A DNA stretch of 64,000 nt from an uncultured Gammaproteobacteria bacterium (GCA_964592785.1 CAZQHU010000001.1:45687-109686), one strand, 5' to 3'. Shown: positions 2,746 through 59,782, counted from the stretch's first letter. Notes: generated from the letters alone by a model not told the origin. A program made the numbers and translations.

Positions 2746-2755
2746 AACCAAATTC

Positions 2756-2832
2756 CTCCCCCTATAAGGGGGAGGTAGGAGGGGTTTGCCAATTTGTGCA
2801 ACCCCACCCTAACCCTCCCCTTGTAGGGGAGG
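2756..2832. repeat. Pair of GC-rich perfect palindromes (CCTCCCCCTATAAGGGGGAGG and CCCTCCCCTTGTAGGGGAGGG); member of the poly-C/poly-G hairpin repeat family
   Basis: Read directly: two perfect hairpins in an intergenic spacer; related copies at 12698-12790 and 59438-59520. Confidence 0.7.
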
Positions 2833-2844
2833 GAAGAAAAAAAT

Positions 2845-9039: not shown

Positions 9040-9256
9040 ATTTTTATAATATAATTTTTACACTTTGGTTGTCGTTTCCGGCTTCACTAACGTTACGCCG
9101 GGCAAGTCAATTATTTAAGGCCCGTTCGTCCCACCTCCGCTAAAGCTACGGCGGGCAGGCTAGTGGCTAGTCCCGATTTTGGCTTCGCGATCAAAATCGA
9201 AGATCCTCGATTCAGCTCGGAGCCGAATCGGGAGACACATGGTTCCCCGCCTGCAT
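9040..9256. repeat. Array of degenerate copies of the CTTCACTAACGTTACGCCGGGCAAGCTA-type hairpin repeat (family 2) preceding tRNA-Glu
   Basis: Units at about 9058-9095 and 9120-9160 plus small extra hairpins; the six-frame ORF 9163..9420 is an artefact across these repeats and the tRNA. Confidence 0.6.
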
Positions 9257-12370: not shown

Positions 12371-13108
12371 TTACTTAGTGATAGTTTTGGCCTGGTTTAG
12401 ATCATATGATCCAATCGCTGTTCTTTTTAATTCTTCGCAATAAGCGCCACAGCCAAGTTTTTGGCCAATATCATTGGCAAGGGTGCGGATATAAGTTCCT
12501 GTTGAACAATTTACTTCAATTTTTAAGTCAGGATAGCTATATTCCAATAATTTTATATTATAAATCTCTATTTTTTGTTTTTTGCGTTTTATATTTTTTC
12601 CTTTTCTGGCCAGTTTATACAGTTTTTGGCCGTTTATTTTTTTAGCGGAGAACATGGGGGGGAGTTGTTTTTGTTTGCCGATGAACTTTTTTAAAACTTT
12701 TTCAATTACCCCCCTTGAAAAAGAGGGGCGAGGGGGGATATTGGCCAAGAATTTTGACAACATCCCCCTTATTCCCTCTTTTTTAAGTGGGAGAATATTT
12801 CCTGTCTTATCAAAAGTATCACTAACATATCCAAGTTTGATTGTTGCAATATAAGTTTTGGGAAGATTTTTAAATTCATCCAGTTTTCTGGTTGCTTCGC
12901 GGCCAATACCAACAATTAAAAGGCCGGTCGCAAAAGGATCTAGTGTTCCACTGTGACCTACCTTCGCCTTGCAGGCTTCGGTGGGCAAGCCATTTTTTTT
13001 TCTTTCCTGGTAAATTTGTTTTCTAATATAATTAACCACGTCAAAGCTGGTCCAACCTGCCGGCTTATTAATCAATAAAAAATTATGATATAATTCAGTC
13101 ATATGCAA
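12371..13108 (-). CDS. truB: tRNA pseudouridine(55) synthase TruB, with an in-frame GC-hairpin repeat insertion at about 12698-12790
   Basis: LLINKPAGWTSFDVV and GHSGTLDPFATGLL catalytic region; insertion translated as LPLKKEGIRGMLSKFLANIPPRPSF. Confidence 0.85.
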   Translation of the reverse strand: MHMTELYHNFLLINKPAGWTSFDVVNYIRKQIYQERKKNGLPTEACKAKVGHSGTLDPFATGLLIVGIGREATRKLDEFKNLPKTYIATIKLGYVSDTFDKTGNILPLKKEGIRGMLSKFLANIPPRPSFSRGVIEKVLKKFIGKQKQLPPMFSAKKINGQKLYKLARKGKNIKRKKQKIEIYNIKLLEYSYPDLKIEVNCSTGTYIRTLANDIGQKLGCGAYCEELKRTAIGSYDLNQAKTITK

Positions 13109-15659: not shown

Positions 15660-17867
15660 ATGGTTAATTTTAAAAGCCATTTTTTTATGTCAAATAATCC
15701 AATACATTTAGATTTACAAAATAAAAATTTAGAGGATTTACCAGGTATTGATGTAGCCAAATTTAATGAGTTGGCTCGTATTATGCGTGGTTTTATTTTT
15801 GCCACAGTAGAGGCGGCGCGTAGTGGACACCCTGGCGGGCCATCGGCCAAAGTGGAACAGTTTCTTGGCATGGTACTTGGTGGGACAATGGCTTTTGATG
15901 CATTGGATCCCAAAAACCCTGGTCGAGATAGAGTGATTTGGTCGGCGGGACATTGCTCACCTGGCTTGTACGCTGGCTTGGCTTTAATTTATGAAAGTTT
16001 GAGAAAAGCTGGAATAAAATTTGATAAAGAAAAATTGCAAACTTATTTGCCAGAAGATTTGGTTCGCTTTCGCCATCCCGATGGGCCACAGGGTCATATT
16101 GAAAATTATAATCCTTTAACAGATTTTGCCACTGGCCCTTCTGGACATGGTTTGTCTGGTGCTGGTGGTATGGCAGTAGTACACAAATCATGTGGACTGG
16201 ATACGCGAGTTTGGGTGTTTATGGGTGATGCTGAGAGTGAAGAGGGTATGAGTTATGAGGCGCGCAATCTTATCAACACTTTGGGATTGGATAATGTGAT
16301 TGTTAGTCTTGATTATAATCATTATGGGATTGATGGCGATATTGATGAAGTGATTGCTACTCCATATATCAATCATTGGTTGGGGTTGGGTTGGAATGTG
16401 ATTGAAATTGATGGGCACAATATTTTGCAGTGCGTTCATGCTTATCGACAGGCGGCCAAAGGATTTGGAAACAGCAGTCCAACAGTAGTTTTGGCACATG
16501 CTATCAAAGGCAAGGCCTATGGACAAAAAGAAAATACTGCAGATTCACATGGTACGCCAGCCAAATTTGATGAGTATGTACAAATCATGAAAGAATTAGG
16601 ATTTGAGATTCCAGGAGTTGAAAAAGAAGTGTTGAAAGATGTTGAAGTGGTGAGTGAAGCAATTACTTCGGAGTTAGCAGGATATGTGAAAGAAAGACTT
16701 GAAAGTCAAAAGTCAAAAGTCAAAAGTCAAAAAGAATTGACTGGTCAAATGGAGAAAACATTGGCTGGGCGTCAGTTAGTCAATCCAACTAGTATAAAAC
16801 GACCAAAAGAATTACCGACAGAGCTTATTTTTGAACCTGGAACAAAAGTGGCGACTAGAAAAGCCACTCAAGCCTGGTTTGAATGGTTGATGAAACAAAC
16901 AGCATTTTTTTATGCAGGAACAGGGGACTTGAGCAAATCTATTCTTACTGATAAAGCAGAAAAAGTGTTTGGAATAATGTCTCGTGAAAATCCTTTGGGT
17001 AGGGGAATTCGTTTTGGGATAGCTGAGCAAAACATGGCCATGTGGTCTACCGCCCTTACAACCGATCGTTTACCGGGAGGATTTGCACCAGTTTCAGTTT
17101 TTTCTTCTTATGCAGTGTTTACTTCCATGATGACCAATTGTGTACGTTTGACTTTGATCAATAATCATTTAAATCCAGAAAACAAAGGCTTTTTTATTTT
17201 ACTAGCGGCGCATGATGGCCCAGAAACAGGCGAGGACGGACCTACTCATCAGGGGATGTATTGGATGAGTATGTTCACCGCTTATCCAGGAATAAAAGTT
17301 TATAAACCAATGGATGCCAATGAAACAATTGAAATGCTTTTTTACGCTCTAGAACGCGGTGAGCCGATCGCTTTGTCAGTGAGTCGTCCAGATACTATTG
17401 TTTTGGATAGAAGTATTGGAAATTCAAAAGCTAGTGAGGCGGTAAATGGGGCATATGTGTTCTACGAAAGTCAAAAGTCTTTAAAGTCCATAAAGTCAAA
17501 AGTCGTGATTGTGGTTGCTGGTGGAATTACTTTGGCGAATACGATGGAGACAGTGCCGGAGTTGGAAAAACAGGGATTGAGTGTGAAAGTATTAGCAGTA
17601 ACTTCTCCCCAGCTTTTTGAAGAGTTGAGGAAAAATGATCCAAAGAAAGCCGAGGAAATATTTTCTGCTGAAGACAGAAAAAATGTGATAGCCATACACA
17701 ATGGTTGGAAAGGGTTTCTTTATCCGTTTCTTTTGCCAGAAGATTATCTGGAGCGAAATATTGGCATTGATACTTATCTCAAATCCGGCAATATAAAGGA
17801 AGTGTATGAATTGGCTGGGTTGACGACGGAAAATATTAAACAGAAAATTTTAAATATTAAAAAATAA
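15660..17867 (+). CDS. tkt: Transketolase (alternative start at 15687) with two in-frame KS-repeat insertions
   Basis: SGHPGGPSAKVEQFLGMVLGG TPP-binding N-terminus and GDAESEEG motif; insertions at 16703-16733 and 17467-17505. Confidence 0.85.
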   Translation: MVNFKSHFFMSNNPIHLDLQNKNLEDLPGIDVAKFNELARIMRGFIFATVEAARSGHPGGPSAKVEQFLGMVLGGTMAFDALDPKNPGRDRVIWSAGHCSPGLYAGLALIYESLRKAGIKFDKEKLQTYLPEDLVRFRHPDGPQGHIENYNPLTDFATGPSGHGLSGAGGMAVVHKSCGLDTRVWVFMGDAESEEGMSYEARNLINTLGLDNVIVSLDYNHYGIDGDIDEVIATPYINHWLGLGWNVIEIDGHNILQCVHAYRQAAKGFGNSSPTVVLAHAIKGKAYGQKENTADSHGTPAKFDEYVQIMKELGFEIPGVEKEVLKDVEVVSEAITSELAGYVKERLESQKSKVKSQKELTGQMEKTLAGRQLVNPTSIKRPKELPTELIFEPGTKVATRKATQAWFEWLMKQTAFFYAGTGDLSKSILTDKAEKVFGIMSRENPLGRGIRFGIAEQNMAMWSTALTTDRLPGGFAPVSVFSSYAVFTSMMTNCVRLTLINNHLNPENKGFFILLAAHDGPETGEDGPTHQGMYWMSMFTAYPGIKVYKPMDANETIEMLFYALERGEPIALSVSRPDTIVLDRSIGNSKASEAVNGAYVFYESQKSLKSIKSKVVIVVAGGITLANTMETVPELEKQGLSVKVLAVTSPQLFEELRKNDPKKAEEIFSAEDRKNVIAIHNGWKGFLYPFLLPEDYLERNIGIDTYLKSGNIKEVYELAGLTTENIKQKILNIKK

Positions 17868-17933
17868 CTGTCATTCCTGCGAAGGCAGGAATCCAGATTT
17901 TTGATTAGATTCCCACCTTCCCGGGAATGACAA
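17868..17933. repeat. Inverted pair of GTCATTCCTGCGAAGGCAGGAATC-type repeats (family 5) forming a hairpin
   Basis: CTGTCATTCCTGCGAAGGCAGGAATC...GATTCCCACCTTCCCGGGAATGACA; further copies at 33784-33847, 34181-34245 and 44010-44076. Confidence 0.7.
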
Positions 17934-28671: not shown

Positions 28672-31600
28672 ATGTCAAAATACGATCATAAAAAAATTGA
28701 AAGTAAATGGCCCGCCTCCGCTAAAGCTACGGCGGGTAAACACTATGATCCGAAGGCTATTGAAAATAAATGGCAATTATTTTGGGAACGTGATAAAACT
28801 TTTGAAGTTACTGAGGATGAAACTAAAAAGAAATTTTATGTTTTGGATATGTTTCCTTATCCTTCTGGTGCTGGTCTTCATGTTGGTCATCCGAAGGGCT
28901 ATATTGCGACTGATGTTATGGCTCGCATGAAAATGATGCAGGGCTTCAATGTTCTTCATCCAATGGGTTGGGATGCTTTTGGACTTCCAGCAGAGAATTA
29001 TGCAATTGCGAATAAAGTTCATCCTTCGGTGGCGACAGCCAAAAATATTGAAACTTTCAAAAAGCAACTGGGTTTACTAGGTTTTACTTATGATTGGGAG
29101 AGGGAAGTGAATACTACTGATCCAAATTATTACAAATGGACCCAGTGGGCCTTTATTCAAATGTTTAAGCGTGGTTTGGCTTATGAATCTTTTGAACCGA
29201 TCAACTGGTGCCCCACTTGTCAGACTGGCCTTGCTAATGAAGATCTTGAAGATGGTAAGTGCGAACGTTGTGGCACTTTGGTCGAACGTAAGCCATTACG
29301 TCAATGGGTTTTGAAAATTACAGATTATGCTGAAAGATTATTAAATGATATTGATAAATTAGAACAATGGCCAGAACCGATCAAAGAAATGCAAAGAAAT
29401 TGGATTGGGAAGAGTGAAGGTGCAGAAATAAACTTTCGCGTCATGTTGAGCGAAGTCGCGTCGGACGCGACGAAGTCGAAACATCCCGTGGAACAAAGGG
29501 ATCCTTCCCCGCAAGGCGGGGCTCAGGATGACGATGTGGTGCTTACAGTTTTTACCACTCGTCCTGACACTCTTTTTGGGGTAACATATATGGTCGTTGC
29601 TCCTGAACATCCGTTGCTCGGGAATAATGAATTAGGAATTAAGAATTATGATGAAGTGTTGGGGTACATTGCCAAAGCAAAAAACAAATCAGACTTAGAA
29701 CGTACAGAATTACAGAAAGAAAAGACTGGAGTCGAGTTGAAGGGAGTGAAGGCAGTCAACCCAGTGAATGGCGAAGAGATCCCTATTTTTGTAGCGGATT
29801 ATGTTTTGATGAATTATGGCACTGGAGCCATCATGGCTGTGCCAGCACATGATGAGAGAGATTTTGAGTTTGCAAAGAAGTTTGGTTTGCTAATGAAAGA
29901 AGTAGTAGTTGAACAAGTAAATTCTCGTTTTAGTGATTCTGAGCCACGCAGAATAGCTATAGCCATTGTTGAAAATGATAAAGGGGAAATTCTTATACAA
30001 TCAGATACCCGTAATAATAAAACCACTTATTGTTTGCCAGGTGGGGGGGTAGATGAAGGAGAAGACATTAGAGAGGCATCTTTGAGGGAAATTAAAGAAG
30101 AGACGGGTTATATCGAATTTGAGAGTATAAAGAAAGTGGGAACTTTGGAAGCAAATTATTACAATCCTAGAAGAGAAATTAACCGACAAGCTTTAGCCAC
30201 CTGTTTTTCAATGAAATTAAAAAGTAATAAAAAGATAGAAGTTCAATTTTCTGAAACAGAAAAACAAGGGTTGATTAAACACTCTTGGTTGAGTAAGGAG
30301 GAAGCAATGAAAGTTTTATCAAGCGAAAATGCTTCTTCTGGTGAGGATCTTGCTTTATTTAAACGTTATTTGAAGAATAAAGATGAAGCCTTTTCAAATT
30401 TAGGTGTTGTTATCAATTCTGACTTCTTAAACGGCTTAGAAACAAGAGACGCCAAAGAAAAAATGATTCAATATTTAGAAGAAAAAAATATTGGTAAAAG
30501 AAAAGTGCAATACAAACTTCGTGATTGGGTATTTTCTCGTCAACGTTATTGGGGTGAACCAATTCCGCTTGTTCATTGTGAGAATTGTGAGAATAAAAAA
30601 TATAATTATATTTTTATTCATGGTTTTTCTTCAAGTTCTGAAAGAGGTTTTAAACCTTGGTTGAAAGAAGAATTAGAAAACAGAGGTCATAAGGTTTGGA
30701 ATCCTGATTTACCAAATACCAATAATCCTAGTGTTAATGAACAAGCTGAATTTATTTTGAAAAATTCACCATTTGCCATTGATGATAATTTAGTTTTGGT
30801 TGGACACAGTTTGGGTGGACCAGCGATTTACCGAATTTTAGAATCAATAAGCCACAAGATTGCTCGGGCTGTTTTGGTTGATCCGGTAGTTCGTCCACGA
30901 TTTAATGATCAAGATCGTCCAGAAGTGGTGGCTAGTTGTGATTGGAAGTTTAATTGGAAAAAAATAAAAAATAATTGTCAGCAATTTATTATTTTGGGTG
31001 ATATAAATAGACCAATTATAAAAAAGGAACATTTAATAGAGTTAGAAAAAAATCTATCAGCTGATTTATGGTGGGTGACTCCAAGAAATTATCATTTTAG
31101 CAGTCGTAATGGTGCAGTAGAAGATGAACCGACAATATTAAAAGCGGCCGTAGCTAATGGCTGGATTCCAGTTCCAGAAAAAGACTTGCCACTGGAACTT
31201 CCCAAAGTAGAAAACTATGAACCAAGTGGAACAGGGGAATCACCTTTGGCCAATATTGAAGAATGGGTGAATACCAAGTGTCCGGTGTGTGGTGGGCATG
31301 CTAAACGAGAAACAAACACTATGCCGCAGTGGGCGGGAAGCTGTTGGTATTACCTACGCTATTGTGATCCGAAGAATAAAAAAGAATTAATTAATAAAGA
31401 AAAAGAAAAATATTGGAATCCAGTGGATCTTTATGTTGGTGGAGCAGAACATGCTACTCGTCACCTCATCTATGCTAGATTTTGGCATAAGTTTCTTTAT
31501 GATATTGGCGTAGTTTCTCATGAGGAGCCATTTATCAGATTACAAAATGTGGGTTTGATTTTGGCCGAAGATGGTCGCAAGATGAGTAAGCGCTGGAATA

Positions 31601-32250
31601 ATGTAATTAATCCTGATGATGTTGTTGCAGAATATGGTGCGGATGCCATGCGACTTTATGAAATGTTTATGGGTCCATTTGATCAGCCAGTAGCTTGGAG
31701 TACTCAGGGAGTGGTAGGGATGAGAAGGTTTTTGGAGAAGGTATGGGCACTCAAGTCAAAAGTTCATAAAGTCGAAAAGTCTGTAAAGTCTAATATTGAT
31801 ACCTTATTACATCAAACTATCAAAAAGGTATCTGAAGATATTGAAGCCATGCGATATAATACAGCCATCTCTCAAATGATGATATTGGTAAACGAAATGA
31901 TCAAAGAAGAAAAATTATTCCTTACTCATTATTCTTTATTCCTTCAATTATTGTCACCGTTCGCTCCACATATAGCCGAAGAATTATGGAGTGAATTGGG
32001 AAATAAAGAATCAATCTTCAAATTTGATTGGCCAAAATATGATCCAGCTTTGATTCAAGACGAAAAGATTACTATTGCCGTACAAGTAAATGGTAAATTG
32101 CGTGATACTTTTGATATTCCAGTTGATATGTCTGAAGAAGAAATTAAAAAATTAACTCTGTCATCTGAAAAAGTTCAAAAATGGCTAGAGGGTAAAGAGC
32201 CAAAGAAAGTTATTTATGTGAAAGGTAGGCTAGTGAGTGTGGTGGTGTGA
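28672..32250 (+). CDS. leuS: Leucyl-tRNA synthetase with an inserted NUDIX domain (about 29944-30390), an inserted alpha/beta serine-hydrolase domain (about 30598-31160), and several in-frame short-repeat insertions. The ORF track start at 28660 is an alternative
   Basis: HVGHPKGY (HIGH), CP1 editing domain TTRPDT, KMSKR; Nudix box GGGVDEGEDIREASLREIKEETG; hydrolase IFIHGF...GHSLGG; both insertions are flanked by LeuRS segments conserved in other bacteria (RDWVFSRQRYWGEPIPLVHC, IPVPEKDLP). Confidence 0.9.
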   Translation: MSKYDHKKIESKWPASAKATAGKHYDPKAIENKWQLFWERDKTFEVTEDETKKKFYVLDMFPYPSGAGLHVGHPKGYIATDVMARMKMMQGFNVLHPMGWDAFGLPAENYAIANKVHPSVATAKNIETFKKQLGLLGFTYDWEREVNTTDPNYYKWTQWAFIQMFKRGLAYESFEPINWCPTCQTGLANEDLEDGKCERCGTLVERKPLRQWVLKITDYAERLLNDIDKLEQWPEPIKEMQRNWIGKSEGAEINFRVMLSEVASDATKSKHPVEQRDPSPQGGAQDDDVVLTVFTTRPDTLFGVTYMVVAPEHPLLGNNELGIKNYDEVLGYIAKAKNKSDLERTELQKEKTGVELKGVKAVNPVNGEEIPIFVADYVLMNYGTGAIMAVPAHDERDFEFAKKFGLLMKEVVVEQVNSRFSDSEPRRIAIAIVENDKGEILIQSDTRNNKTTYCLPGGGVDEGEDIREASLREIKEETGYIEFESIKKVGTLEANYYNPRREINRQALATCFSMKLKSNKKIEVQFSETEKQGLIKHSWLSKEEAMKVLSSENASSGEDLALFKRYLKNKDEAFSNLGVVINSDFLNGLETRDAKEKMIQYLEEKNIGKRKVQYKLRDWVFSRQRYWGEPIPLVHCENCENKKYNYIFIHGFSSSSERGFKPWLKEELENRGHKVWNPDLPNTNNPSVNEQAEFILKNSPFAIDDNLVLVGHSLGGPAIYRILESISHKIARAVLVDPVVRPRFNDQDRPEVVASCDWKFNWKKIKNNCQQFIILGDINRPIIKKEHLIELEKNLSADLWWVTPRNYHFSSRNGAVEDEPTILKAAVANGWIPVPEKDLPLELPKVENYEPSGTGESPLANIEEWVNTKCPVCGGHAKRETNTMPQWAGSCWYYLRYCDPKNKKELINKEKEKYWNPVDLYVGGAEHATRHLIYARFWHKFLYDIGVVSHEEPFIRLQNVGLILAEDGRKMSKRWNNVINPDDVVAEYGADAMRLYEMFMGPFDQPVAWSTQGVVGMRRFLEKVWALKSKVHKVEKSVKSNIDTLLHQTIKKVSEDIEAMRYNTAISQMMILVNEMIKEEKLFLTHYSLFLQLLSPFAPHIAEELWSELGNKESIFKFDWPKYDPALIQDEKITIAVQVNGKLRDTFDIPVDMSEEEIKKLTLSSEKVQKWLEGKEPKKVIYVKGRLVSVVV

Positions 32251-32722: not shown

Positions 32723-34216
32723 ATGATAGAAAAAATTATCAATTCAAAAAGCAAGACGTTTTTGGCGCTTTGCTTTTGTTTTTTATTAGGAGTTTTGTTT
32801 ATTTCTATTTTTGATTGGCGCTTTGCTTTTGTCTATTTATATTCATTATTATTCATCATCATATCATTTATTATTTATTTTTGGTCTAATAAAAAATTAT
32901 TATTTTTATTTTTTTGTTTTCTGATTTTTTTGCTGGGCGTGGTCCGTTATCAATTGTCTTTTTGGGGGCAGGAAATTTCAACCGGTATAAAAGAATTTAC
33001 AGCTTATATTTCGTCTGAACCAGATGTGCGGACAGATGGGGTGCGCTATATTGTCAAGTCAGATTTTGGTAAAGTTTATTTAAAAGAGCCATTATACCCA
33101 CGCTATAGTTATGGTGATGAACTTGAAATAAAATGTGATTTACAAAAACCAGAAGTTGGTTCAGACGGTTTTCGCTATGATATGTATTTGGCGCGCTATG
33201 GAGTTTTTACAGTTTGCAATAAGACCACAATAGAAAAAATTGGCACAAACAAAGAAAATTTTTTATTGAGAGGGATTTTTAATTTTAAAAATACCATTGC
33301 CAATAGAATAAATAAACTTTGGCATGAACCGTATGCTAGCTTTATGGCCGGGCTACTCTATGGTTATCGCGGGGGACTGGGGAGTTTGAATGAATTATTT
33401 AGTCGAACAGGTGTCACGCATATTATTGCCATTTCTGGTTATAATATTACCATCATAGTAACAATACTCATGACGATTTTTGTTAATTTTTATATTCCAC
33501 GTAAGAAAGCTTTTTGGATGATTGTTGCAGGAGTTATTTTATTTGTAATTTTTACTGGAGCATCAGCCTCGGTCGTGCGAGCGGGCATCATGGGAATAAT
33601 AGTACTTTTAGCCAAACAAATGGGGAGATTGTCTCGAGTAGGGAATGTCCTAGTCTTAACTGCCGTAATAATGGCTTTACAAAATCCTTTGATTTTACTT
33701 TGGGATGCTGGTTTTCAATTGTCTTTTATTTCTACTCTAGGTTTGGTTTATTTGTCACCACTTATTAATTCTCTCATCCCCGTGAAAGCAGGAATCTTGG
33801 CTATAAAAAATAAGATCCCCGCCTTCGCGGGGATGATAGAGGTTTTACAAGAATCGGTTGTTTCCACTTTTTCGGCGATCATTGCTACTTTGCCATTGAT
33901 TCTATTTCAATTTGGCCGACTGTCTATAGTCGCGCCTGTGGTTAATATGCTTATTCTTTGGTTGATTCCTTTTTTGATGTTAAGTGGTTTTTTGGCATTA
34001 TTATTTAGTTTTTTATTTTTTCCTTTGGGTCAAGTGGTCGCCTGGTTGAGCTGGGTAGGACTCAAATACATTACGACAATAGTTGAGTGGTTTGCCAGCT
34101 TAAAATTTGCTGCTATTGATCTACAAATAACTTGGTGGATGATGGCAGTCTTGTATGGAGTTATGATATACTTTATCACACGTCATCCCCGCGAAGGCGG
34201 GGATCTCGTTAGGTAA
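32723..34216 (+). CDS. comEC: ComEC/Rec2 DNA-internalisation competence protein (DUF4131 plus competence domain), with in-frame family-5 repeat insertions at 33784-33847 and 34181-34205
   Basis: Polytopic; MAGLLYGYRGGL...THIIAISGYNITI competence-domain motifs. Confidence 0.8.
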   Translation: MIEKIINSKSKTFLALCFCFLLGVLFISIFDWRFAFVYLYSLLFIIISFIIYFWSNKKLLFLFFCFLIFLLGVVRYQLSFWGQEISTGIKEFTAYISSEPDVRTDGVRYIVKSDFGKVYLKEPLYPRYSYGDELEIKCDLQKPEVGSDGFRYDMYLARYGVFTVCNKTTIEKIGTNKENFLLRGIFNFKNTIANRINKLWHEPYASFMAGLLYGYRGGLGSLNELFSRTGVTHIIAISGYNITIIVTILMTIFVNFYIPRKKAFWMIVAGVILFVIFTGASASVVRAGIMGIIVLLAKQMGRLSRVGNVLVLTAVIMALQNPLILLWDAGFQLSFISTLGLVYLSPLINSLIPVKAGILAIKNKIPAFAGMIEVLQESVVSTFSAIIATLPLILFQFGRLSIVAPVVNMLILWLIPFLMLSGFLALLFSFLFFPLGQVVAWLSWVGLKYITTIVEWFASLKFAAIDLQITWWMMAVLYGVMIYFITRHPREGGDLVR

Positions 34217-34245
34217 TAAGATTCCTGCTTTCGCAGGAATGACAT
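34181..34245. repeat. Family-5 inverted repeat pair spanning the comEC stop codon
   Basis: CGTCATCCCCGCGAAGGCGGGGATC...ATTCCTGCTTTCGCAGGAATGAC. Confidence 0.65.
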
Positions 34246-39514: not shown

Positions 39515-40306
39515 ATGAGAGAAGAAGAAGCTAGAGAAATATTGAAACAAAGAGTTGAAAAGTTAATGTCCAATAGGGCTTTTTTACGTTTTGCCAGAAG
39601 TTTTTTGGTTTATCAAGAAATATATGGCAGTACGGATAGTATTAAGAAGAAAAAAGAAATGAGGCAGAAGATGGGGGATGTTTTTAATGGTATTTTTTTT
39701 GGAACTGTAATAGATAGAGAAGAATTATGTACAAATTTAGCAGAATTTTTCAGAGAGCTTTTTATTGAATGTGAAAAAGGTCAATTTGATACTAAAAAGT
39801 TGGCTGAAAAATTGGCGCTATCCTCGTTTTATGAAAGATTTGATTCAGAATGGAATAGTAAACCAGAAGTTTCTGAACATGATGAACAGATTAATGAATT
39901 GGTACTTTATACAAAACATCCAGATTACCCCATTATGATTCATATAAAGCCAGCTAATCTCGATACTAAGGACTTTGTGCCAAAGTTGGTTGAAGGTTTT
40001 AGAATTATTGCTGGAAAAATGAAGAGTGGGGAGATTGATGAATCTTATAAAGATGTAGTGATGAAGTCTTGGCTTTTGTCTGGAAAGTTTTGGGATGAAA
40101 TCAAAAAAATTTTTGGTGATACGGTCAAAGGCTATCTGTCCTTGGGTAAAGAAGATACCAAACCGGAAGATGTCAATGTTGCTTTGATTTATAATAGAAA
40201 GTCTTTAGAAGAATATTTAAAAAGTGGAGAAGTGCCATTAATTGGGATTATTACGTTGACAAGGGAACAATTTTTAGAAAGGTTTGGTAGTGTAAATCCC
40301 CTCTAG
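39515..40306 (+). CDS. Hypothetical protein
   Basis: Host-like composition; stop codon lies inside the left terminal repeat of the adjacent cassette. Confidence 0.4.
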   Translation: MREEEAREILKQRVEKLMSNRAFLRFARSFLVYQEIYGSTDSIKKKKEMRQKMGDVFNGIFFGTVIDREELCTNLAEFFRELFIECEKGQFDTKKLAEKLALSSFYERFDSEWNSKPEVSEHDEQINELVLYTKHPDYPIMIHIKPANLDTKDFVPKLVEGFRIIAGKMKSGEIDESYKDVVMKSWLLSGKFWDEIKKIFGDTVKGYLSLGKEDTKPEDVNVALIYNRKSLEEYLKSGEVPLIGIITLTREQFLERFGSVNPL

Positions 40307-40730
40307 AGAGGGGTGCCGACCCGCCAATTTGGCGGGGAGGCGGGGTGTGTGACCGTGGTTTGCAAAATTATGCCAGTTATTAACTACCAACAATCATTAA
40401 AACAAAAGGCCCGGGAACTACGCAAACATTCCACACTAGGCGAAGTAATACTCTGGAAATATTTAAAAAATAAACAAATGTTGGGTTTTGACTTTCATCG
40501 TCAAAAATCAATCCACAACTATATTGTAGACTTTTATTGCCCCAAATTAATGTTAGCAATAGAAATAGATGGTTTTGCTAGTCATGATATGAAGTCAGAT
40601 TACGATAAACAGAGACAAGAGTTTTTGGAAAATAAAGGCCAAAAACTTTTAGAAAATTATATCACTAACCAACGGTAACACACCCCGTCTCCGACTGCGA
40701 CGTCGGAGCCACCCCTCTCTAGAGGGGATT
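40295..40730. mobile_element. 436-bp cassette flanked by 21-bp perfect terminal inverted repeats (AATCCCCTCTAGAGAGGGGTG) carrying a DUF559 endonuclease-like gene
   Basis: Left 40295-40315, right 40710-40730 (exact reverse complement); subterminal GGGGTGTGT(G/T)ACC is also shared. Confidence 0.65.
40370..40678 (+). CDS. DUF559 (Vsr-like very-short-patch-repair endonuclease fold) protein
   Basis: LRKHSTLGEVILWKYLKNKQMLGFDFHRQKSIHNYIVDFYCPKLMLAIEIDGFASH matches the DUF559 core. Confidence 0.65.
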   Translation: MPVINYQQSLKQKARELRKHSTLGEVILWKYLKNKQMLGFDFHRQKSIHNYIVDFYCPKLMLAIEIDGFASHDMKSDYDKQRQEFLENKGQKLLENYITNQR

Positions 40731-40737
40731 AATATTT

Positions 40738-41367
40738 ATGAAAAAATTTTTACTCCACACCTGCTGTGCGCCGTGTAGTATCGCCATTATAGATGAACTC
40801 AAAGATAAGTTTGATTTGACAGTCTTTTTTTATAATCCAAATATTTTTCCAGAAGAAGAATATTTGAAGCGCAAGAAATATGTTATTCAAGTTTGTGAAG
40901 AATGGGGTGTGAAGATGATAGATTGGGATTATGAAGTAGAGAAATGGAACGAGACAGTTAAGGGTTTAGAGAATGAACCAGAGGGAGGAGCGCGGTGTGC
41001 GGTGTGTTTCAAAATGCGTTTAGAAAAAACTGCCAAGTATGCCAAAGAAAATAATTTTGATATTTTTTCTACCAGCCTTACTTCTGGGCGAACTAAGCGC
41101 GCAGAAATAATCAACCCTATTGGTCAGTTATTGGCAGATAAATATGGACTTGAATATTTAGCTGAAGATTGGAAAAAAGGTGGACGACCCACCTCCGCTA
41201 CCACCTTCGCTGAAGCTTCGGCGGTCAAGAAAGCTACGGCGGGCAAGCAGGAAAGTAGACAAGAAAAAGCTACTAGGTTGGTTAATGAGCGAGGGATTTA
41301 TCGGCAGAATTATTGTGGATGTAAGTATTCTTTAAAATTGAATTACATAGATAATAATAAAAAATAG
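40738..41367 (+). CDS. queH: Epoxyqueuosine reductase QueH (DUF208) with an in-frame family-2 repeat insertion (41188-41250)
   Basis: N-terminal LLHTCCAPCS motif and C-terminal NYCGC; insertion translated as PTSATTFAEASAVKKATAGKQ. Confidence 0.75.
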   Translation: MKKFLLHTCCAPCSIAIIDELKDKFDLTVFFYNPNIFPEEEYLKRKKYVIQVCEEWGVKMIDWDYEVEKWNETVKGLENEPEGGARCAVCFKMRLEKTAKYAKENNFDIFSTSLTSGRTKRAEIINPIGQLLADKYGLEYLAEDWKKGGRPTSATTFAEASAVKKATAGKQESRQEKATRLVNERGIYRQNYCGCKYSLKLNYIDNNKK

Positions 41368-41936: not shown

Positions 41937-42019
41937 TGTGTATTTATATAATATAAAACCGACCAAGTGGTCGGTTTTTTGTTCTTGACATTTTTTATGT
42001 TTATGTTAAGATTGTTTGG

Positions 42020-42283
42020 CTGATGAACCTTGCGTCACGTGTATGGATGGCCTGAGAGCCATAGCACTGATGTGAGTTTTGTTGGCTGGGGGCTGACAGC
42101 GGTCCGATACGGACTGAGTTTTCGACGAAAGTCGACGATTGTGGTCTCGGACCGCTGTCGCCCCTGTTTTGAACGGAGGCTAAGGGGGTGTGTTTTTCTG
42201 TATACACATCCCCCGCGTTCCAAATAAATAAATTTTGTTTATTTAGAATGAAAAATAATCCCGATATTATGTCGGGATTATTT
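42020..42283 (+). ncRNA. Candidate GC-rich structured RNA (promoter TTGACA-N16-TAAGAT at 41985-42012; long helix GGGGCTGACAGCGGTCCGA/TCGGACCGCTGTCGCCCC; terminator)
   Basis: Promoter nearly identical to that of island D; nested hairpins; terminator AATCCCGATATTATGTCGGGATTATTTTT. Confidence 0.3.
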
Positions 42284-43945: not shown

Positions 43946-44009
43946 AATACTTTGTAATTATTGAAATTTAAGTGTTTTTATGGTATCATAATGGGGTACA
44001 ATAATCAAA

Positions 44010-44076
44010 CGTCATTCCTGCGAAGGCAGGAATCTTTCTTTAAATCAAATAAGATTCCCGCTTTCGCGGGAATGAC
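44010..44076. repeat. Family-5 inverted repeat pair (GTCATTCCTGCGAAGGCAGGAATC ... GATTCCCGCTTTCGCGGGAATGAC)
   Basis: Read directly; intergenic between glyA and the next gene. Confidence 0.7.
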
Positions 44077-51376: not shown

Positions 51377-53017
51377 TTATATTTTAAAAAGGGATTCCTC
51401 ACCCTGTTGGGTTCGGAATTTTGAAATTAGTTCTTCAATCATTCCGCGGAAACCATGGCTACCACAAAAAACTATAGTAACCTTATTTTGTTTGATTAAA
51501 TAATTTACTAATTCTTCATCATCATCAATATATTTTACATTGGGGTGGGTCTTGGCAATGATTTTTGTCAGTTCGCTTCCTTCCCAGTGTTTTAATTTTT
51601 CTGAAGTTTTTAATTTGGTTAGTTTAGGAATAATTACTTCGTCAGCGTTTTCAAAAGCATTATTATAGCTTGGTTCAGATTGTGGTTGGCGATTGCCGGT
51701 ATTGGGTTCGAAGATGCAGAAGATTTTGGTTCTGTCATTTTGAGCCCCGCCTTGCGGGGAAGAATCCCGACGGGATCCTTCGTCACTTCGTTCCTCAGGA
51801 TGACGCTTGTATATGTTGGCTAAATTTTCCAAAACACTTTTGGCTTTGGCGGGGGAGTGAGCAATATCATCAAAAATAGTAATATTTTCATTTTCAAATC
51901 TTTTTTCCAGTCTTCTTTTTAGGCCTTGAAATTTAGCGATTGCTTGAATAATTTTTTCTGGTTCAATACCAATTTGGTGAGCCATGGCGAAAGCGCCGGT
52001 GATGTTTTCAACATTGTAAGAACCCAAGGTTTTAGTTTGTAGCTTATAGTTTTTAGAATCATGTATAATTTCAAACTGCAAACCAGATTTGTCCATTGTC
52101 ACATTGCCACATTGATACGTTGTCGATGGGGAAAATCCATATGTGATAATTTGGCAATTTGACAATTTGACAATGTTTTTTGTTTTTTCACCTGCTACAA
52201 TTATGCCATTCTTTGGCACAGACTTAATTAATTTTTCAAACGCCTGAAAATAACTTTTTTCAGTGGGATAAACATCCGCATGATCCCATTCTATGGCTGT
52301 CAAAAGCAGGTGAGTGGGGTGATAATGAAAAAATTTGGCGCCATCATCCCAGCGAGAAGATTTGTATTCATCACCTTCAAGTACTGACCAATCGTCATCT
52401 TGAGCGGATCCGCCAGTTGGCGGAGGAGTCGAAAGATCCCTTGTAAGAAGTAAGGGATTCTTCGACTTCGTCGCGTCTGGCGCGACTTCGCTCAGAATGA
52501 CGTTTCCTAAGCTAGCACTATCAAACTCATCAATCACAATTCCTCCAAACATATAACTGGGATTATAACCACATTCTGACAGGATAAAAGAGAGTAGGGC
52601 AGAAGTCGAGGTCTTACCATAGGTACCAGCACAAACAATTGAATTTTCTTTAACAAAATATTTTTCAATAGCTTCTGGATAAGATAAATAATTTAATTTA
52701 TTTTTTTGAACATAGAGCCACTCAGGATTTGTAGAACTAGCGACATTGCCGACTATTACTAAATGGTCATTTTTTCCTCCTTCGCTACCACCTTCGCCAA
52801 GGCTTTGGCGGTCAAGAAAGCTTCGGAGGACGAAGTCTGGATGCCAGCCTGGATAGAAATCTATCTGATGTTTTTCTAGATTGGTAGAAACTGGAGGAAA
52901 GAAACCGACATCAGATCCGGACACCTCAAAACCAGCTTTTTTGAAAGCTATAGCGAGAGCCGACATGGCTACTCCACAGATGCCGATGAAATGAATTTTG
53001 TGAATTTTGTTGTTCAT
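51377..53017 (-). CDS. murC: Mur ligase (MurC/Mpl-type) with three in-frame repeat insertions
   Basis: IHFIGICGVAMSALAIAFKKAGFEVSGSD N-terminus, GTYGKTSTS P-loop; insertions at 51734-51804, 52394-52503 and 52775-52838. Confidence 0.8.
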   Translation of the reverse strand: MNNKIHKIHFIGICGVAMSALAIAFKKAGFEVSGSDVGFFPPVSTNLEKHQIDFYPGWHPDFVLRSFLDRQSLGEGGSEGGKNDHLVIVGNVASSTNPEWLYVQKNKLNYLSYPEAIEKYFVKENSIVCAGTYGKTSTSALLSFILSECGYNPSYMFGGIVIDEFDSASLGNVILSEVAPDATKSKNPLLLTRDLSTPPPTGGSAQDDDWSVLEGDEYKSSRWDDGAKFFHYHPTHLLLTAIEWDHADVYPTEKSYFQAFEKLIKSVPKNGIIVAGEKTKNIVKLSNCQIITYGFSPSTTYQCGNVTMDKSGLQFEIIHDSKNYKLQTKTLGSYNVENITGAFAMAHQIGIEPEKIIQAIAKFQGLKRRLEKRFENENITIFDDIAHSPAKAKSVLENLANIYKRHPEERSDEGSRRDSSPQGGAQNDRTKIFCIFEPNTGNRQPQSEPSYNNAFENADEVIIPKLTKLKTSEKLKHWEGSELTKIIAKTHPNVKYIDDDEELVNYLIKQNKVTIVFCGSHGFRGMIEELISKFRTQQGEESLFKI

Positions 53018-55716: not shown

Positions 55717-56871
55717 ATGTCCATTGGTGGAGTGGTCATCACTACGGGCGTAGCCTGTGCCAAACTGGATCTGCTCAAGGTCATGATCGAGATGGTTCTC
55801 CAGGCAGGTCTTCAGCCGGTGTTGCGGATCAATACCGCGCATCACGGCAGTCCGTTGTTCCAGCAGATACTGGACGTGACCTGTGAAGCTAGGTATGCGT
55901 ATCCGGAAGGTGAAGTCCTGCTTCAGATGGACTTGCCTGGTCCGAAAATCCGCGCGCGGATTGCAAGCGGGGTCAAGGAAAGGGAACTCAAGCCTGGTGA
56001 TGAGATCTTCTTCGGCCATGAAGGCTGTCTACCGCAGTTCTCGTTCAACAATGGCCGTGAACTTCTCTGCCCCAATCTGCCCGAAGTGCTCTTTGGGCTG
56101 GAGGCGGGGATGGACATTGTCATGGCCGACGGTGCATTCCGTTTCCAGGTGAAGGAAGTGGTGGAGCAAAATCGTCTATTCCTGCTCGTGGTCTTGAGGG
56201 CCAAGGAAGTGTTCAAGGATTACCGTGGTGTTTCCTTCCCGAAACGGAGAGGTATCGGTGGTATCTGCTGCCCCACTCAGGAAGACCTAGACCTGGTACC
56301 GCTGGTAGTTTCTTCGAGTGCGAACATCGTTGCCCAATCCTTCACGCTGAACGGTGATTCCATTCGCACTCTGCGTTCGCAGATCGAGAAGTGCGGTGGA
56401 AGGAACGTGCAGGTGATGGCTAAGCCGGAAAACCGCGATGCCTTGTACAACTGGAGGAGCATCTGCGAAGCGAGCGATTCACTGATGGTTCCTCGGGGTG
56501 ACCTGGCAGTGGAAGTCTCCCTTCTGGATCTGCCTTTCATCCAGCAGATACTGGTCATTTGGGGACGTTCCTACAACAAGCCGGTCACCATTGGTACGGG
56601 GCTCTTGCGTAGCATGCTCGAAGACGACGAGTATGCACGTTCGGAAGCCACGGATGTCACGGTGGCGATTCAGCAGCTCTGGGGGACCCCAGGCTTCGTG
56701 ATGCTGACGAACGAAACCTGCGAGGGTAAACACCCGGCCGAGACCGTGGCAGTGATCCTGGCGACGGTCCAGAGGAACAGGAAGTATTTGGAGATCCTTC
56801 ACCATCTGGTTCCGACTGACTTGGACAGGTTCGAGGAGGAATATCGGGGGCTTTTGGACAGTTGCACTTGA
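55717..56871 (+). CDS. Divergent pyruvate-kinase-like TIM-barrel protein lacking the C-terminal domain, GC-rich island G
   Basis: GGAGGcaatcATG ribosome-binding site; DLPGPKIR, MAKPENRDAL, MVPRGDLAVEV and KPVTIGTGLLRSM parallel the PK motifs DTKGPEIR, KIENQEG, MVARGDLG and KPVICATQMLESM. Confidence 0.6.
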   Translation: MSIGGVVITTGVACAKLDLLKVMIEMVLQAGLQPVLRINTAHHGSPLFQQILDVTCEARYAYPEGEVLLQMDLPGPKIRARIASGVKERELKPGDEIFFGHEGCLPQFSFNNGRELLCPNLPEVLFGLEAGMDIVMADGAFRFQVKEVVEQNRLFLLVVLRAKEVFKDYRGVSFPKRRGIGGICCPTQEDLDLVPLVVSSSANIVAQSFTLNGDSIRTLRSQIEKCGGRNVQVMAKPENRDALYNWRSICEASDSLMVPRGDLAVEVSLLDLPFIQQILVIWGRSYNKPVTIGTGLLRSMLEDDEYARSEATDVTVAIQQLWGTPGFVMLTNETCEGKHPAETVAVILATVQRNRKYLEILHHLVPTDLDRFEEEYRGLLDSCT

Positions 56872-56940
56872 TCTCCCTTGGGAGGTGGAGGGAATCGTGG
56901 TCTGGTTGATTAGTGCGATAAGTAGAAAGGAGGTGTGATC

Positions 56941-57279
56941 ATGATGCCTGAACTCGTCAGAACCTTTGGAGGACATCAGTTTCCGCTCTCCATTTACATG
57001 GGAGAGAGGAAGGTGGTGGTCCAGGTACCAGAAGAAGGAGAACTCAAGACCATCGAGCGTGGTTCTGGCAATGGCAGGAAGGTCATCCTCTACCCGCTGA
57101 CCATGGTCGATGGAGTGAATCACCGTTTCGTGTTCAATCACGAAAATGGTGTTCCGATTTCGGGCTACATCGAGGAAGCCAAGGGACACCGTCTCAAGCC
57201 GGGAGTGAAATTCACCTTTTCGGTGATCACGAGCGGTGGTCGGTGCCCGGTCCAGGCTCGAGTGGAACTGCAGTCATAG
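56941..57279 (+). CDS. Hypothetical 112-aa protein, GC-rich island G
   Basis: AAAGGAGGTGTGATCATG ribosome-binding site. Confidence 0.4.
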   Translation: MMPELVRTFGGHQFPLSIYMGERKVVVQVPEEGELKTIERGSGNGRKVILYPLTMVDGVNHRFVFNHENGVPISGYIEEAKGHRLKPGVKFTFSVITSGGRCPVQARVELQS

Positions 57280-57324
57280 TCCTGGGGGCTTGACTGACTG
57301 GCCGGCTTGTGTTAGGATAGTTTT

Positions 57325-57600
57325 GGCTAACTTCGCGTGAAGGGACCGCACGAATGCTCTGCTACGGGCGCGGTTGCGCGAATTTTGGCTGGCCCACAGG
57401 GGCCGGGTGGTGGGTCGTTTGGCACGACCCCCCAGGTTGGACACCGTTGCAAGATACGGCGACCATGGCCTTTCGGCCCACCACCCAACCCTGTCCACAA
57501 GGAGGACGGGGGTGTATTCTGCACCCCCCAAGTTCCAAACCAATAAACATTTGTTGATTGGGAATAACAAAAAATCGCTTTAAAGCGATTTTTTGTTTTA
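57325..57600 (+). ncRNA. Candidate GC-rich structured RNA (promoter TTGACT-N17-TAGGAT at 57290-57318; terminator AAAAAATCGCTTTAAAGCGATTTTTTGTTTT)
   Basis: Long-range pairing GGCCGGGTGGTGGG / CCCACCACCCAACC; many overlapping short ORFs on both strands, typical of non-coding GC-rich sequence. Confidence 0.3.
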
Positions 57601-58365
57601 TATTTTTAATCTTTTTATTACAAATTCTTTGGCTTTTTTCGCATACTCTTGCATTTGTGGTTCGGACCAAGTTTGTTCTAATAAATTTTTGTTGGGGTTG
57701 GTAATTGTAATTGTTTCTTGTCGGACGCCGTGGTTGTATTGTCCGTCGGTAGGGTATTGGAAGGAGTGAATATAGTTCAGAGTTCCTAGTTCAGAGTTCA
57801 CAGACTCTACTAGTAAAACATGGTTGTAATCTTGTTTTAGTCCTGCACCCATAATAATGATCATATCACCCGGTTGAATTTCTGATAATTTAATTTCAAA
57901 ACTATTTACTTTGTGATGGAAAGTTCCCACGCCAGTATTTTCAATCGGACGAAGTTTGACCAAAAATTTTCTGAGAGGATTTTTGAACCAAGGTCTTTTC
58001 AAAACCTTATGTAAACTGCCTTTGCCACGAGCCTGCATTTCAGCGTCTAGTATGTGATAAACCAGTCCCGAACAATCAATACCTAGATTATGGTTGATTA
58101 AAAATTTTTTTAATTCTTCATTATTCAGTTTGTTTAAATCAACTTTTTCTCGGAGTGAAAAAATAGTTGCTTCTTCTACAATATCTTCAGGGCTACCTTT
58201 GCCGATCATGGCGCGTAAACCTCCGCGAAGTCGAGCACGACGATTATTAAAATAAGGACAAGAAATTTGTTTGCCAGGGAAGGGAAGTTGGAGATATTTT
58301 TGAATAACTTGCAGGGCTTGAGGAGATAGACTATTCATAATTTTTAATTTGAAATTTTTAAACAA
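57598..58365 (-). CDS. NlpC/P60-family cysteine peptidase-like protein
   Basis: GIDCSGLVYHIL catalytic Cys context and a downstream His. Confidence 0.55.
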   Translation of the reverse strand: MFKNFKLKIMNSLSPQALQVIQKYLQLPFPGKQISCPYFNNRRARLRGGLRAMIGKGSPEDIVEEATIFSLREKVDLNKLNNEELKKFLINHNLGIDCSGLVYHILDAEMQARGKGSLHKVLKRPWFKNPLRKFLVKLRPIENTGVGTFHHKVNSFEIKLSEIQPGDMIIIMGAGLKQDYNHVLLVESVNSELGTLNYIHSFQYPTDGQYNHGVRQETITITNPNKNLLEQTWSEPQMQEYAKKAKEFVIKRLKI

Positions 58366-58372
58366 TTTTTAA

Positions 58373-59782
58373 TTATTTAATTTTCAATAAATTTACAATT
58401 TTATTACCAATTATACTAAATTCATTATGTTTTTTCATTATTCCAGTTTTGCTTTGAATGCGAATCAAATCCGAATTTAATTTTGTGTTGTTATACTGGA
58501 TGGTATTAAAATTATTTTTTTTGAGTTTTTCAATAATCTTATAATTATTTAATTTTTTAATCATTTGCTCATCGTTCATTCTCTGTATTATTTGTGCCCC
58601 GTCTTGGATTTTGATTAATGTCTGATTTTCTAAATTCATGTTTAACAAAGCTAGTAAATGCGCTTCAAAAGTTGTCATTCCGAGCGAAGTCGAGGAATCC
58701 CTTTTACATTGTTTAAGGGATCCCTCCACTCGTTTACACTCGGTCGGGATGACAGACCGTTGTAATTGTGATTCGTAGGTAGTGGAGGCCGGTTGTCGGC
58801 AATTGATTTCCAACAAATACAATTTGCCAGTCTTCTCGTGCATTACTATATCGATCCCAAATAAACCGCGCCAACCAGCTTTTTTGAGCCTTAGACCAAC
58901 ATCAGTGGCAATTTTTTTATATTGTGCAATTTGTTTTTTATTTAAAATTTTATGAGGCAATGCCCAATCATTTCCAATAGTAGAAAAAGGCAGATCAGTA
59001 AAAGGCTTGAGGCCGGTAATTTGGTAATTGATATTACCAACCATTATTTCAGAATTTGCAACTACATTATTGTTGGTAAAAAGTGGACCAGGAATATATT
59101 CAGCGATTCGTACTTCACGTTCAGGAAATTTTTGTTGCAGAGTTTGTAGTTGTTTTTTGGATTCAATTAGAGTAGTACCACTACCAGTGTGGGATCTATT
59201 AAATTGCAGAATAAATGGCCCGACTCCGCTTCGTTGCGCCAGGGTAAGTTTACCCCAGGCAATTTCTTTACACTTCAAAACTTTATATTTTGGTAAATAT
59301 TTTTTTAATGGTCCGAGCCAAGTAATTTGCGAAATTTTTTCTTCTACCTCATTGGAAATTCTAGCTGGAGGATTTAGAAGTTTCCAATTATTTTCAGCAC
59401 AAGTTTTTTCAATTTGTAAGGTGTTTTTGAATACCAAAATCCCCCCCGGCCCCCCTTTACAAAGGGGGGAAGTGTCCAATTTCCCCCTTAGAAAAGGGGG
59501 ATTAAGGGGGATATTGGCAATATTATTAATAAACTTCTTTACTTGTTTATTCTGTAGTAGCTCCCAAGTATCCAGAATCTTTTTTTCTTTGATAAGTAAG
59601 ACATTTTTGTGTTTTTGATAAGACTTGGCAAAGTCAGAAAAATTTGAGATAATAAAATAACCTTTGGTATTAACAGGTAGTCCTAGAGCGCGCTCAAGAT
59701 CACGCGTAACGTAGATTATGGGTTGTTTGGTTAGGTCAAGCATAACGAGGGTAATTATAATAAAATTAAGCAAAAAAATCAA
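58373..59782 (-). CDS. ATP-grasp domain protein with two in-frame repeat insertions (58674-58755 family 1; 59438-59520 GC-hairpin family)
   Basis: LFGIDIVMHEKTGKLYLLEINCRQPAST C-terminal ATP-grasp signature. Confidence 0.6.
   Translation of the reverse strand: MIFLLNFIIITLVMLDLTKQPIIYVTRDLERALGLPVNTKGYFIISNFSDFAKSYQKHKNVLLIKEKKILDTWELLQNKQVKKFINNIANIPLNPPFLRGKLDTSPLCKGGPGGILVFKNTLQIEKTCAENNWKLLNPPARISNEVEEKISQITWLGPLKKYLPKYKVLKCKEIAWGKLTLAQRSGVGPFILQFNRSHTGSGTTLIESKKQLQTLQQKFPEREVRIAEYIPGPLFTNNNVVANSEIMVGNINYQITGLKPFTDLPFSTIGNDWALPHKILNKKQIAQYKKIATDVGLRLKKAGWRGLFGIDIVMHEKTGKLYLLEINCRQPASTTYESQLQRSVIPTECKRVEGSLKQCKRDSSTSLGMTTFEAHLLALLNMNLENQTLIKIQDGAQIIQRMNDEQMIKKLNNYKIIEKLKKNNFNTIQYNNTKLNSDLIRIQSKTGIMKKHNEFSIIGNKIVNLLKIK

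Follow-up and report, generated by a model that had tools for sequence, protein, structure and literature searches.

Short palindromic repeats of bacterial genomes have been described together with several kinds of enzyme. Miniature inverted-repeat transposable elements (MITEs) have terminal inverted repeats, as in the Correia or NEMIS elements of Neisseria. NEMIS elements are listed in PMC2267715, and the reference system for the present work is provided by repetitive extragenic palindromic (REP) sequences and REP doublets forming hairpins (REPINs), with their REP-associated tyrosine transposases (RAYTs) (PMC3116915, PMC3337134, PMC5581495). The nuclease domain DUF559 has been grouped with Escherichia coli Vsr and with the homing endonuclease I-Bth0305I (PDB 3r3p) (PMC3424549), and one DUF559 protein, from Caulobacter, serves as a Vsr-like enzyme of repair (PMC12907096). 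Here we analyse a 64,000-nucleotide stretch of DNA from an uncultured Gammaproteobacteria bacterium (GCA_964592785.1 CAZQHU010000001.1:45687-109686), hereafter the window, in which a 436-bp cassette at positions 40295-40730 holds a DUF559 gene between structured inverted repeats. Our best reading of this cassette is that it represents a decayed member of a widespread unit, with a behaviour that resembles that of REP sequences and their RAYTs rather than that of a fresh transposon.

A two-hairpin module at the ends of DUF559 genes

As the original prediction had proposed, the cassette is bounded by a perfect 21-nt inverted repeat, AATCCCCTCTAGAGAGGGGTG at 40295-40315 being the exact reverse complement of 40710-40730. 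With up to 3 mismatches allowed, the 21-mer occupies these two sites only in the 64 kb, against an expectation of 0.01 matches in shuffled sequence. The subterminal block described in the same prediction, CGGGGTGTGTKACCGT, is likewise present in inverted orientation at 40341-40356 and 40672-40687, and the pair can be extended to 26 nt that are 85% complementary (40336-40361 and 40667-40692). Between the outer and the subterminal blocks each end has its own GC hairpin, and the sequences of these two hairpins differ. The list of open reading frames (ORFs) and the Pfam search also bear out that the DUF559 ORF at 40370-40678 is the sole cargo, with no recognised transposase of the DDE, HUH or serine/tyrosine recombinase types.

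The 21-mer turns out to be the 5' part of a larger module of 46-65 nt, which starts with A(A/T/G)TCCCC and has no GTAG head. It is laid out as AAT, a first hairpin (CCCCTC-N4-GAGGGG), a T, an optional second hairpin of free sequence with a G-C closing pair, and a box, GGGGTGTGT, that repeats the 3' arm. A search for further copies of the 21-bp repeat had been proposed: none exists in the window beyond the two ends, and a scan of one genome per species (596 Gb) found the exact 21-mer in 36 genome stretches, where by our own arithmetic about 0.3 would be expected by chance. The hosts include members of the candidate phyla radiation (CPR), namely Candidatus (Ca.) Magasanikbacteria, Falkowbacteria, Parcubacteria and Gracilibacteria, as well as Verrucomicrobiota (Lacunisphaera, Opitutaceae), Pelosinus, Ignavibacteria and Bacteroidota. 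Nearly all of these stretches continue after the 21-mer with a short hairpin, variable in sequence, and with GGGGTGTGT beyond it. That the two arms in the window are perfectly identical is no sign of a recent insertion, because the 21-mer is a conserved feature of the whole family, distant phyla included.

The free sequence of hairpin 2 is constrained by pairing. Among 37 seed sequences we counted 31 double-change cells, a value that none of 500 shuffles reached and that collapsed in slid controls, and the count over 146 modules was 161 versus 52.6, with double changes in 8 of the 11 pairs. Wobble pairs are rare and show no strand bias (12 GT/TG versus 21 AC/CA), which favours a structure formed in DNA over one formed in RNA; a structure at the RNA level was rejected, G-U mismatches not being in excess over A-C. 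In Rfam searches three tRNAs alone reached the gathering score in the window, and nothing relevant appeared at E values up to 10 within 40200-40800.

A short form of the module, 37-39 nt long, does without hairpin 2. Across the family the 5' and 3' arms co-vary with the box as sets (CTCCTC/GAGGAG/GGAGGTGTGT, CCCCCT/AGGGGG/GGGGGAT and CCTTCC/GGAAGG/GGAAGGTGT), and this joint change may reflect alternative pairing or fold-back copying within each module. The locus L118, with modules at 2437-2492 and 2869-2920, and its orthologue L129 have a left end of the CTCCTC type and a right end of the CCTTCC type, each end keeping its own three-way match. Short variants are also found in the window at 12710-12745 and 59483-59518 (also 59438-59480), in the form CCCCCTT..AAGGGGG, a linker and GGGGGATATTGGC. 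Those at 12710 and 59483 belong to the class of CCCCCT/AGGGGG/GGGGGAT modules that lie beside some metagenomic DUF559 genes; they have no DUF559 gene close by, and both lie within long minus-strand ORFs.

The association of the module with DUF559 is reproducible. All seven of the DUF559 genes found beside the 21-mer (in the window and in loci L004, L009, L018, L021, L035 and L036) lie tightly between two inward-facing modules whose box ends point toward the gene. In an independent sample, 80 metagenomic loci were picked by protein similarity alone and then searched for modules with a covariance model; modules bracket 28 of the 80 genes on both sides and a further 24 on one side only. Within 200/300 nt of the gene these loci have 2.89 modules per kb, versus 0.14 per kb elsewhere, a 20-fold difference (p=7e-65), and 77 of 109 modules face inward, with 32 in other orientations (p=2e-5). 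Cassette lengths cluster at 436-640 bp, the two inward modules enclosing the ORF with almost no spare bases.

These patterns bear directly on the simplest account of the window locus, which is that two unrelated terminator palindromes happen to surround a small gene. One of the two hairpins does pass a simple terminator scan: on the plus strand the right hairpin 1 is followed by ATTAATATTT, and the left copy has no T-run. However, a second inverted block and a covarying hairpin accompany a match that shuffles almost never produce, the conserved box and the second hairpin are not features of terminators, and the same arrangement recurs at dozens of independent DUF559 loci. With one arm only passing the scan and the same module conserved and covarying in many phyla, we rejected chance or independent terminators and regard this account as extremely improbable.

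Inheritance and mobility of the cassettes

The window cassette aligns end to end, at 84% identity, with a cassette at L004:6251-6728 in Ca. Magasanikbacteria GW2011_GWC2_37_14, which is located between a prepilin peptidase gene and a kinase-ligA pair, in flanks that are unrelated to those of the window. The homology extends exactly to the repeat tips, AATCCCC... and ...GGGGATT, and no further, and the repeats of the two cassettes are 21/21 identical although dS between the two genes is saturated. The same Magasanikbacteria genome contains L005, a 130-bp gene-less unit that retains some 50 nt from the left end of the cassette and some 60 nt from the right, and which folds into one long hairpin (z=-11); such gene-less mini-units measure 110-135 bp. 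Over all loci, adjacent modules fall into three classes, comprising inward pairs with gaps of 8-34 nt (7 cases), inward pairs with gaps of 321-470 nt, which are the DUF559 cassettes, and outward doublets with gaps of 0-18 nt (29 cases). In Verrucomicrobiota and Pelosinus the outward doublets occupy successive intergenic regions between housekeeping genes, and solo copies of the module also occur in intergenic DNA. Inverted flanks alone define no element, because larger inward brackets hold ordinary housekeeping genes; candidate "cargo cassettes" with comF, recD2, nuoL, dGTPase and PBP2 were rejected, these being host genes that lie between doublets. The end-to-end alignment and the gene-less pairs argue that the DUF559 cassette itself is a discrete unit belonging to a family, with miniature derivatives.

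Could the cassette be an autonomous inverted-repeat transposon, with DUF559 as its transposase and the gene-less pairs of about 130 bp as MITEs mobilised in trans? That two genomes carry a discrete unit with inverted ends, each at a site unrelated to the other, would fit such an element, as would gene-less pairs that keep both ends, and partial tandem copies and ORF stubs suggest insertion beside existing ends. The flanks, which read TA|..|AA in the window, TA|..|TA in L004 and L005 and often ..TA|AAT...ATT|TA.. elsewhere, are compatible with a TA target, but the TA at the junctions is palindromic and can equally be an extension of the repeat, and no consistent target duplication was found across 36 cassettes. 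Copy number and context speak against this reading. There is a single copy in the 64-kb window, and identical DUF559 proteins share one genomic context: all 24 contigs with protein P0036 have its gene between serS and dus, and in all 10 contigs with P0001 the neighbours are pilD and the kinase-ligA pair. Recent transposition was rejected for this reason. The larger inward brackets that enclose housekeeping genes, a nuclease fold without known joining activity, and the near absence of the family from plasmids (5 of 72,556 records, all cyanobacterial and all weak matches) do not suit a transposon either.

Orthologous retention adds to this case. A relative whose Dus is 86% identical retains the cassette between serS and dus, and at the recD2-comF site the cassette has persisted, with every neighbouring doublet, in three Pelosinus genomes. 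The DUF559 dN/dS values are 0.035 (window versus L004, with dS saturated at 2.6), 0.12 and 0.18, and both dN/dS and dS are similar to those of neighbouring housekeeping genes. Between the orthologous loci L118 and L129 the modules are kept, with one compensatory change from T-A to C-G, and the leader and outer flanks are scrambled. This picture of single copies, vertical descent and purifying selection covers three lineages. On these comparisons gene and modules are both under purifying selection, and the cassette behaves as an old, mostly vertically inherited nuclease-repeat partnership and not as a recently active transposon, which makes an autonomous transposon improbable in our judgement. 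Of the compact selfish insertion that the original prediction envisaged, the discrete unit, its occurrence at unrelated loci and its gene-less miniatures therefore stand, and a recent MITE-like or homing-like insertion does not. An empty site, for which that prediction had proposed a search, was not found either. The gene upstream of the window cassette is an orphan absent from the contig index, so that no search through it was possible, and among serS-dus relatives the contig of a 94% relative ends at the junction and those at 64-65% have no synteny.

A different kind of mobility would be a homing-type spread, in which the ORF alone moves, the nuclease cutting the centre of a gene-less inward pair and repair using the modules of about 55 nt as homology arms. 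This would account for an ORF that always lies exactly between inward modules, for the existence of gene-less pairs, and for the lack of a target duplication, which is not expected under homing. The Vsr/DUF559 clade holds a proven group I intron homing endonuclease (PMC3424549), and PHROG "homing endonuclease" families match weakly (E=2.5e-7). However, the gene-less L005 retains leader-like and 3'-end-like cassette sequence and thus looks like a deletion product rather than a naive site, and it has stayed unfilled alongside the intact L004 cassette of the same genome. Homing also leaves the outward doublets and solo modules unexplained and sits poorly with single copy number and vertical inheritance. 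The unit is intergenic and does not lie in an intron, an intein or a conserved target, and the relatives either keep the cassette or are without synteny. We therefore consider homing quite unlikely.

Vertical inheritance and purifying selection on gene and modules would instead be expected if DUF559 were a host repair nuclease of the very-short-patch type, such as the Vsr-like enzyme of Caulobacter (PMC12907096). The modules would then be cis-regulatory or insulating, either through 5'/3' mRNA pairing that limits a potentially toxic nuclease or as terminators, and other copies would be generic hairpins. Their location in the leader and at the stop codon agrees with such a role, and so does the right hairpin, which with its T-rich tail passes the terminator scan. 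Nevertheless, the left copy lacks a T-run, the rarity of wobble pairs and their lack of strand bias (12 GT/TG versus 21 AC/CA) point to a structure in DNA, and the module is present at many gene-less intergenic sites, also as doublets. The recurrence of the cassette as a unit at unrelated loci and the presence of partial duplications and ORF stubs likewise do not follow from a role in cis, and we have strong doubts about this explanation.

We favour a nuclease-repeat partnership in which DUF559 would act on the folded module, and we give this proposal, in which contact is deduced from position alone, somewhat less than an even chance of being right. The Vsr-like nuclease would recognise the folded module, as single-stranded or cruciform DNA, and would nick it; host repair or replication might then occasionally copy modules, and rarely the whole cassette, to new sites. 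Such a scheme would parallel that of RAYTs with REP and REPIN sequences, although the enzyme fold differs. It is tempting to extend the partnership to DUF559 proteins at large, including YcjD of E. coli, which could be the dedicated enzymes of a second, non-HUH class of REP-like repeats that spans phyla, nicking the folded module and so maintaining or spreading it, with the Box C repeat discussed below perhaps as a divergent branch. This generalisation is more speculative, and we think it rather unlikely.

Several observations weigh against the partnership and its mechanism. To our knowledge, no strand-transfer (joining) chemistry is known for a PD-(D/E)XK nuclease, and the link that suggests binding or cutting of the module by DUF559 is purely positional. 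In the sample picked by protein similarity, 28 of the 80 DUF559 genes have no module at the sensitivity of the model, and few modules lie at a distance from the gene (0.14 per kb), a dispersed population being documented in some genomes only. The two ends of a single cassette may differ in their arm and box class, which is awkward for sequence-specific recognition by one protein. No cassette showed presence/absence polymorphism in the loci and relatives compared. Finally, about 25 DUF559 loci (L036, L039, L055, L065, L091 and about 20 others) are flanked by long repeats that are direct and not inverted. Each such direct repeat, 45-135 nt in length, is an entire outward doublet, to which the leader and initial codons of another ORF copy are sometimes joined, and the arrangement points to partial tandem duplication or to insertion beside existing ends. 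One of these loci, L091, carries a tandem module array with a period of about 152 nt.

The value of these observations lies in the family-wide pattern and not in the decayed copy of the window. DUF559 is a very large family, among the commonest uncharacterised nuclease domains in bacteria, and CPR, Verrucomicrobiota, Bacteroidota and enterobacteria commonly carry short, GC-rich palindromes of unknown origin. Their reproducible physical coupling gives the nuclease and the repeat a testable function each, and it accounts for much that looks odd when AT-rich genomes are annotated, namely many C-terminal tails (HTP..PL*) and "GC islands". If the partnership is real, long-lived intragenomic replicators of the REP/RAYT type would gain a second class of enzyme. 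A search of full-text literature, with subscription literature outside its reach, returned no paper that links DUF559 or YcjD to flanking repeats.

The window copy and its surroundings

Both modules of the window are intact, with scores that match the best of the family. The left module (40295-40350, plus strand) consists of AAT at 40295-40297, hairpin 1 (CCCCTC-TAGA-GAGGGG) at 40298-40313, hairpin 2 within 40315-40341 with the core CCCGCC..GGCGGG, and the box GGGGTGTGT at 40342-40350. It scores 55.8 bits with our covariance model, R1 (E=4e-18), and its predicted DNA fold has an energy of -17.2 kcal/mol (z=-4.0). The right module (40678-40730, minus strand) comprises AAT at 40730-40728, hairpin 1 at 40727-40712, the hairpin 2 stem at 40689-40695 and 40702-40708, and the box at 40686-40678; it reaches 60.3 bits (E=7e-20) and a fold of -13.4 kcal/mol (z=-3.0). 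At the level of R1 the window has only these two flanking modules, and there is no second cassette in the 64 kb.

The cassette is closely packed against its neighbours, in agreement with what had been predicted. On the left, the TAG stop codon (40304-40306, plus strand) of the upstream ORF lies inside the repeat, in the loop of left hairpin 1. This orphan ORF (39515-40306, 263 aa) has no Pfam match and, among 5.8 billion proteins, matches itself alone. The left module is followed on the plus strand by 40351-40369, which holds the extension of the subterminal inverted repeat and a short 5' leader, GACCGTGGTTTGCAAAATT, ahead of the ATG, and which is kept in the Magasanikbacteria cassette. The DUF559 ORF itself (40370-40678, plus strand; Pfam E=3e-25) encodes a Vsr-like PD-(D/E)XK protein of 102 aa, and its TAA stop codon (40676-40678) overlaps the first base of the right module. 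On the right, the repeat adjoins queH, whose ATG at 40738 is 7 nt further on; queH (40738-41367, plus strand; Pfam QueH E=8e-62) is a host gene outside the element.

The nuclease gene of the window is incomplete. The ORF matches Pfam DUF559 (PF04480) with E=3.1e-25 and 88.6 bits, against a cut-off of 20.6, but over profile positions 2-86 of 109 only, and a purpose-built hidden Markov model covers it at positions 4-96 of 125, versus 2-120 in intact copies. Alignments show that, relative to every homologue, 54 bp are deleted in frame at about 40649/40650. The 18 residues lost (RFTEIEVRKNIEAVLYTI in P0001, the closest homologue) include the last helix and an R-F strand that is nearly invariant. 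Their counterparts in PDB 3HRL, residues 77-94, fall inside the solved DUF559 domain, and P0001 matches this structure with E=3.7e-13. Residues D54, E65, D67 and H72 are retained in an otherwise incomplete domain. Conservation of all other parts of the protein makes it probable that the deletion is recent, and it is probably also inactivating. Lacking 18 conserved residues, the window copy is most likely an inactive relic wedged between the orphan gene and queH. A PADLOC search gave weak domain-level matches only.

The window contains other repeats and compositional features. Within queH, a GC-rich segment of about 55-70 nt at 41180-41250 (CCACCTCCGCTACCACCTTCGC..GGCGGTCAAGAAAGCTACGGCGG) is inserted in frame and splits the Pfam match in two; it recurs at 52776-52829 (85% identity), and a similar sequence is found at 9116-9179. 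A family of GC-rich hairpins, GTCATTCCTGCGAAGGCAGGAATC, is located at 17859-17893, 33762-33836, 34181-34243 and 44000-44076, and also in the ligA coding region of the Magasanikbacteria genome (L004 4931-5244), with 79-87% identity. More repeat families occur at 26781, at 52394 and 53362, and at 29482 and 51739. At 41977-42235 a terminator is followed by a promoter-like TTGACA-N18-TAAGAT and then by about 200 nt of GC-rich, ORF-poor sequence that ends in a GGGGGTGTGT..ACACATCCCCC hairpin. This segment, which no Rfam family matches at gathering score, may be a non-coding RNA; another promoter box of this kind is present at 26858. The region 56001-58000 has a GC content of 51%, versus 38% overall, and several GC islands of more than 80 nt (57213-57538), and it may be foreign or structural-RNA-rich DNA.

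Two of the related loci deserve mention in this context. Positions 2628-5141 of L017 share gene order and 67-73% nucleotide identity with 28830-32198 of the window, which is AT-rich and CPR-like. L017 comes from a metagenome-assembled genome that carries the module and is labelled "uncultured Gammaproteobacteria", a label that is probably wrong. In L132, a small 23S_rRNA_IVP (four-helix-bundle) gene at 2517-3008, beside dus, is framed by AGCTTCCGCAGCT units in direct and inverted orientation. It was rejected as a module cassette, the flanking repeat being another one, and it suggests that other small genes in CPR genomes are likewise boxed in by repeats.

Comparison with known systems

In E. 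coli, a CCCTCTCCC/GAGGG-type hairpin has the stop codon of the DUF559 gene ycjD in its loop (L117 6200-6830; NC_000913.3 1351200-1351830). The 3' side of ycjD holds a partial duplicate of the gene's own 3' end and then a dispersed repeat, which occurs in all 5,426 genomes at a median of 18 and a maximum of 32 places per genome. Its layout, a hairpin followed by TTA and GGGTGAGGG, is like that of the short module form ...GAGGGG TTA GGGGTGGGT, in resemblance only; unlike the cassettes, ycjD has no matching copy of the repeat upstream, and model R1 gave no match in the E. coli ycjD region. We take this repeat to be Box C. The published BoxC is 56 bp long and has 32 copies (PMC2267715). Because R1 does not score the repeat beside ycjD, the relation of ycjD and Box C to the module stays a lead only.

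With Vsr and I-Bth0305I the DUF559 proteins share a nuclease superfamily and clade, one member of which has a documented selfish, DNA-invading lifestyle. Unlike I-Bth0305I, the DUF559 unit is free-standing and intergenic, outside any intron or conserved target gene, it is framed by structured repeats, and no pair of occupied and empty alleles is known for it. The gene-less units of 110-135 bp resemble MITEs such as the Correia/NEMIS elements in their compactness, inverted ends and fold into a long hairpin, in their intergenic position near gene starts and stops, and in the TA that is often found at their junctions. The parent unit, however, has a PD-(D/E)XK nuclease where the parent of a MITE has a DDE transposase, there is no clear target duplication, and copy number is low.

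The closest likeness is to REP sequences and RAYTs. In both systems inverted copies of a short palindromic repeat stand on either side of a single-copy nuclease gene, and the repeat also occurs outside genes as inverted doublets and solo copies, here in the Verrucomicrobiota, Pelosinus and Bacteroidota loci, the window having the two flanking copies only. Vertical inheritance, purifying selection on the enzyme, long persistence and low copy turnover are further shared traits. The differences concern both partners. The enzyme is a Vsr-like PD-(D/E)XK nuclease, whereas a RAYT is an HUH Y1 transposase, and the module has two hairpins and a box that copies the 3' arm, whereas REP sequences have a GTAG head. 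A large dispersed population of modules is found in some genomes only, the window not being among them, and the module sequence is near-identical across phyla, in contrast to REP sequences, which are lineage-specific.

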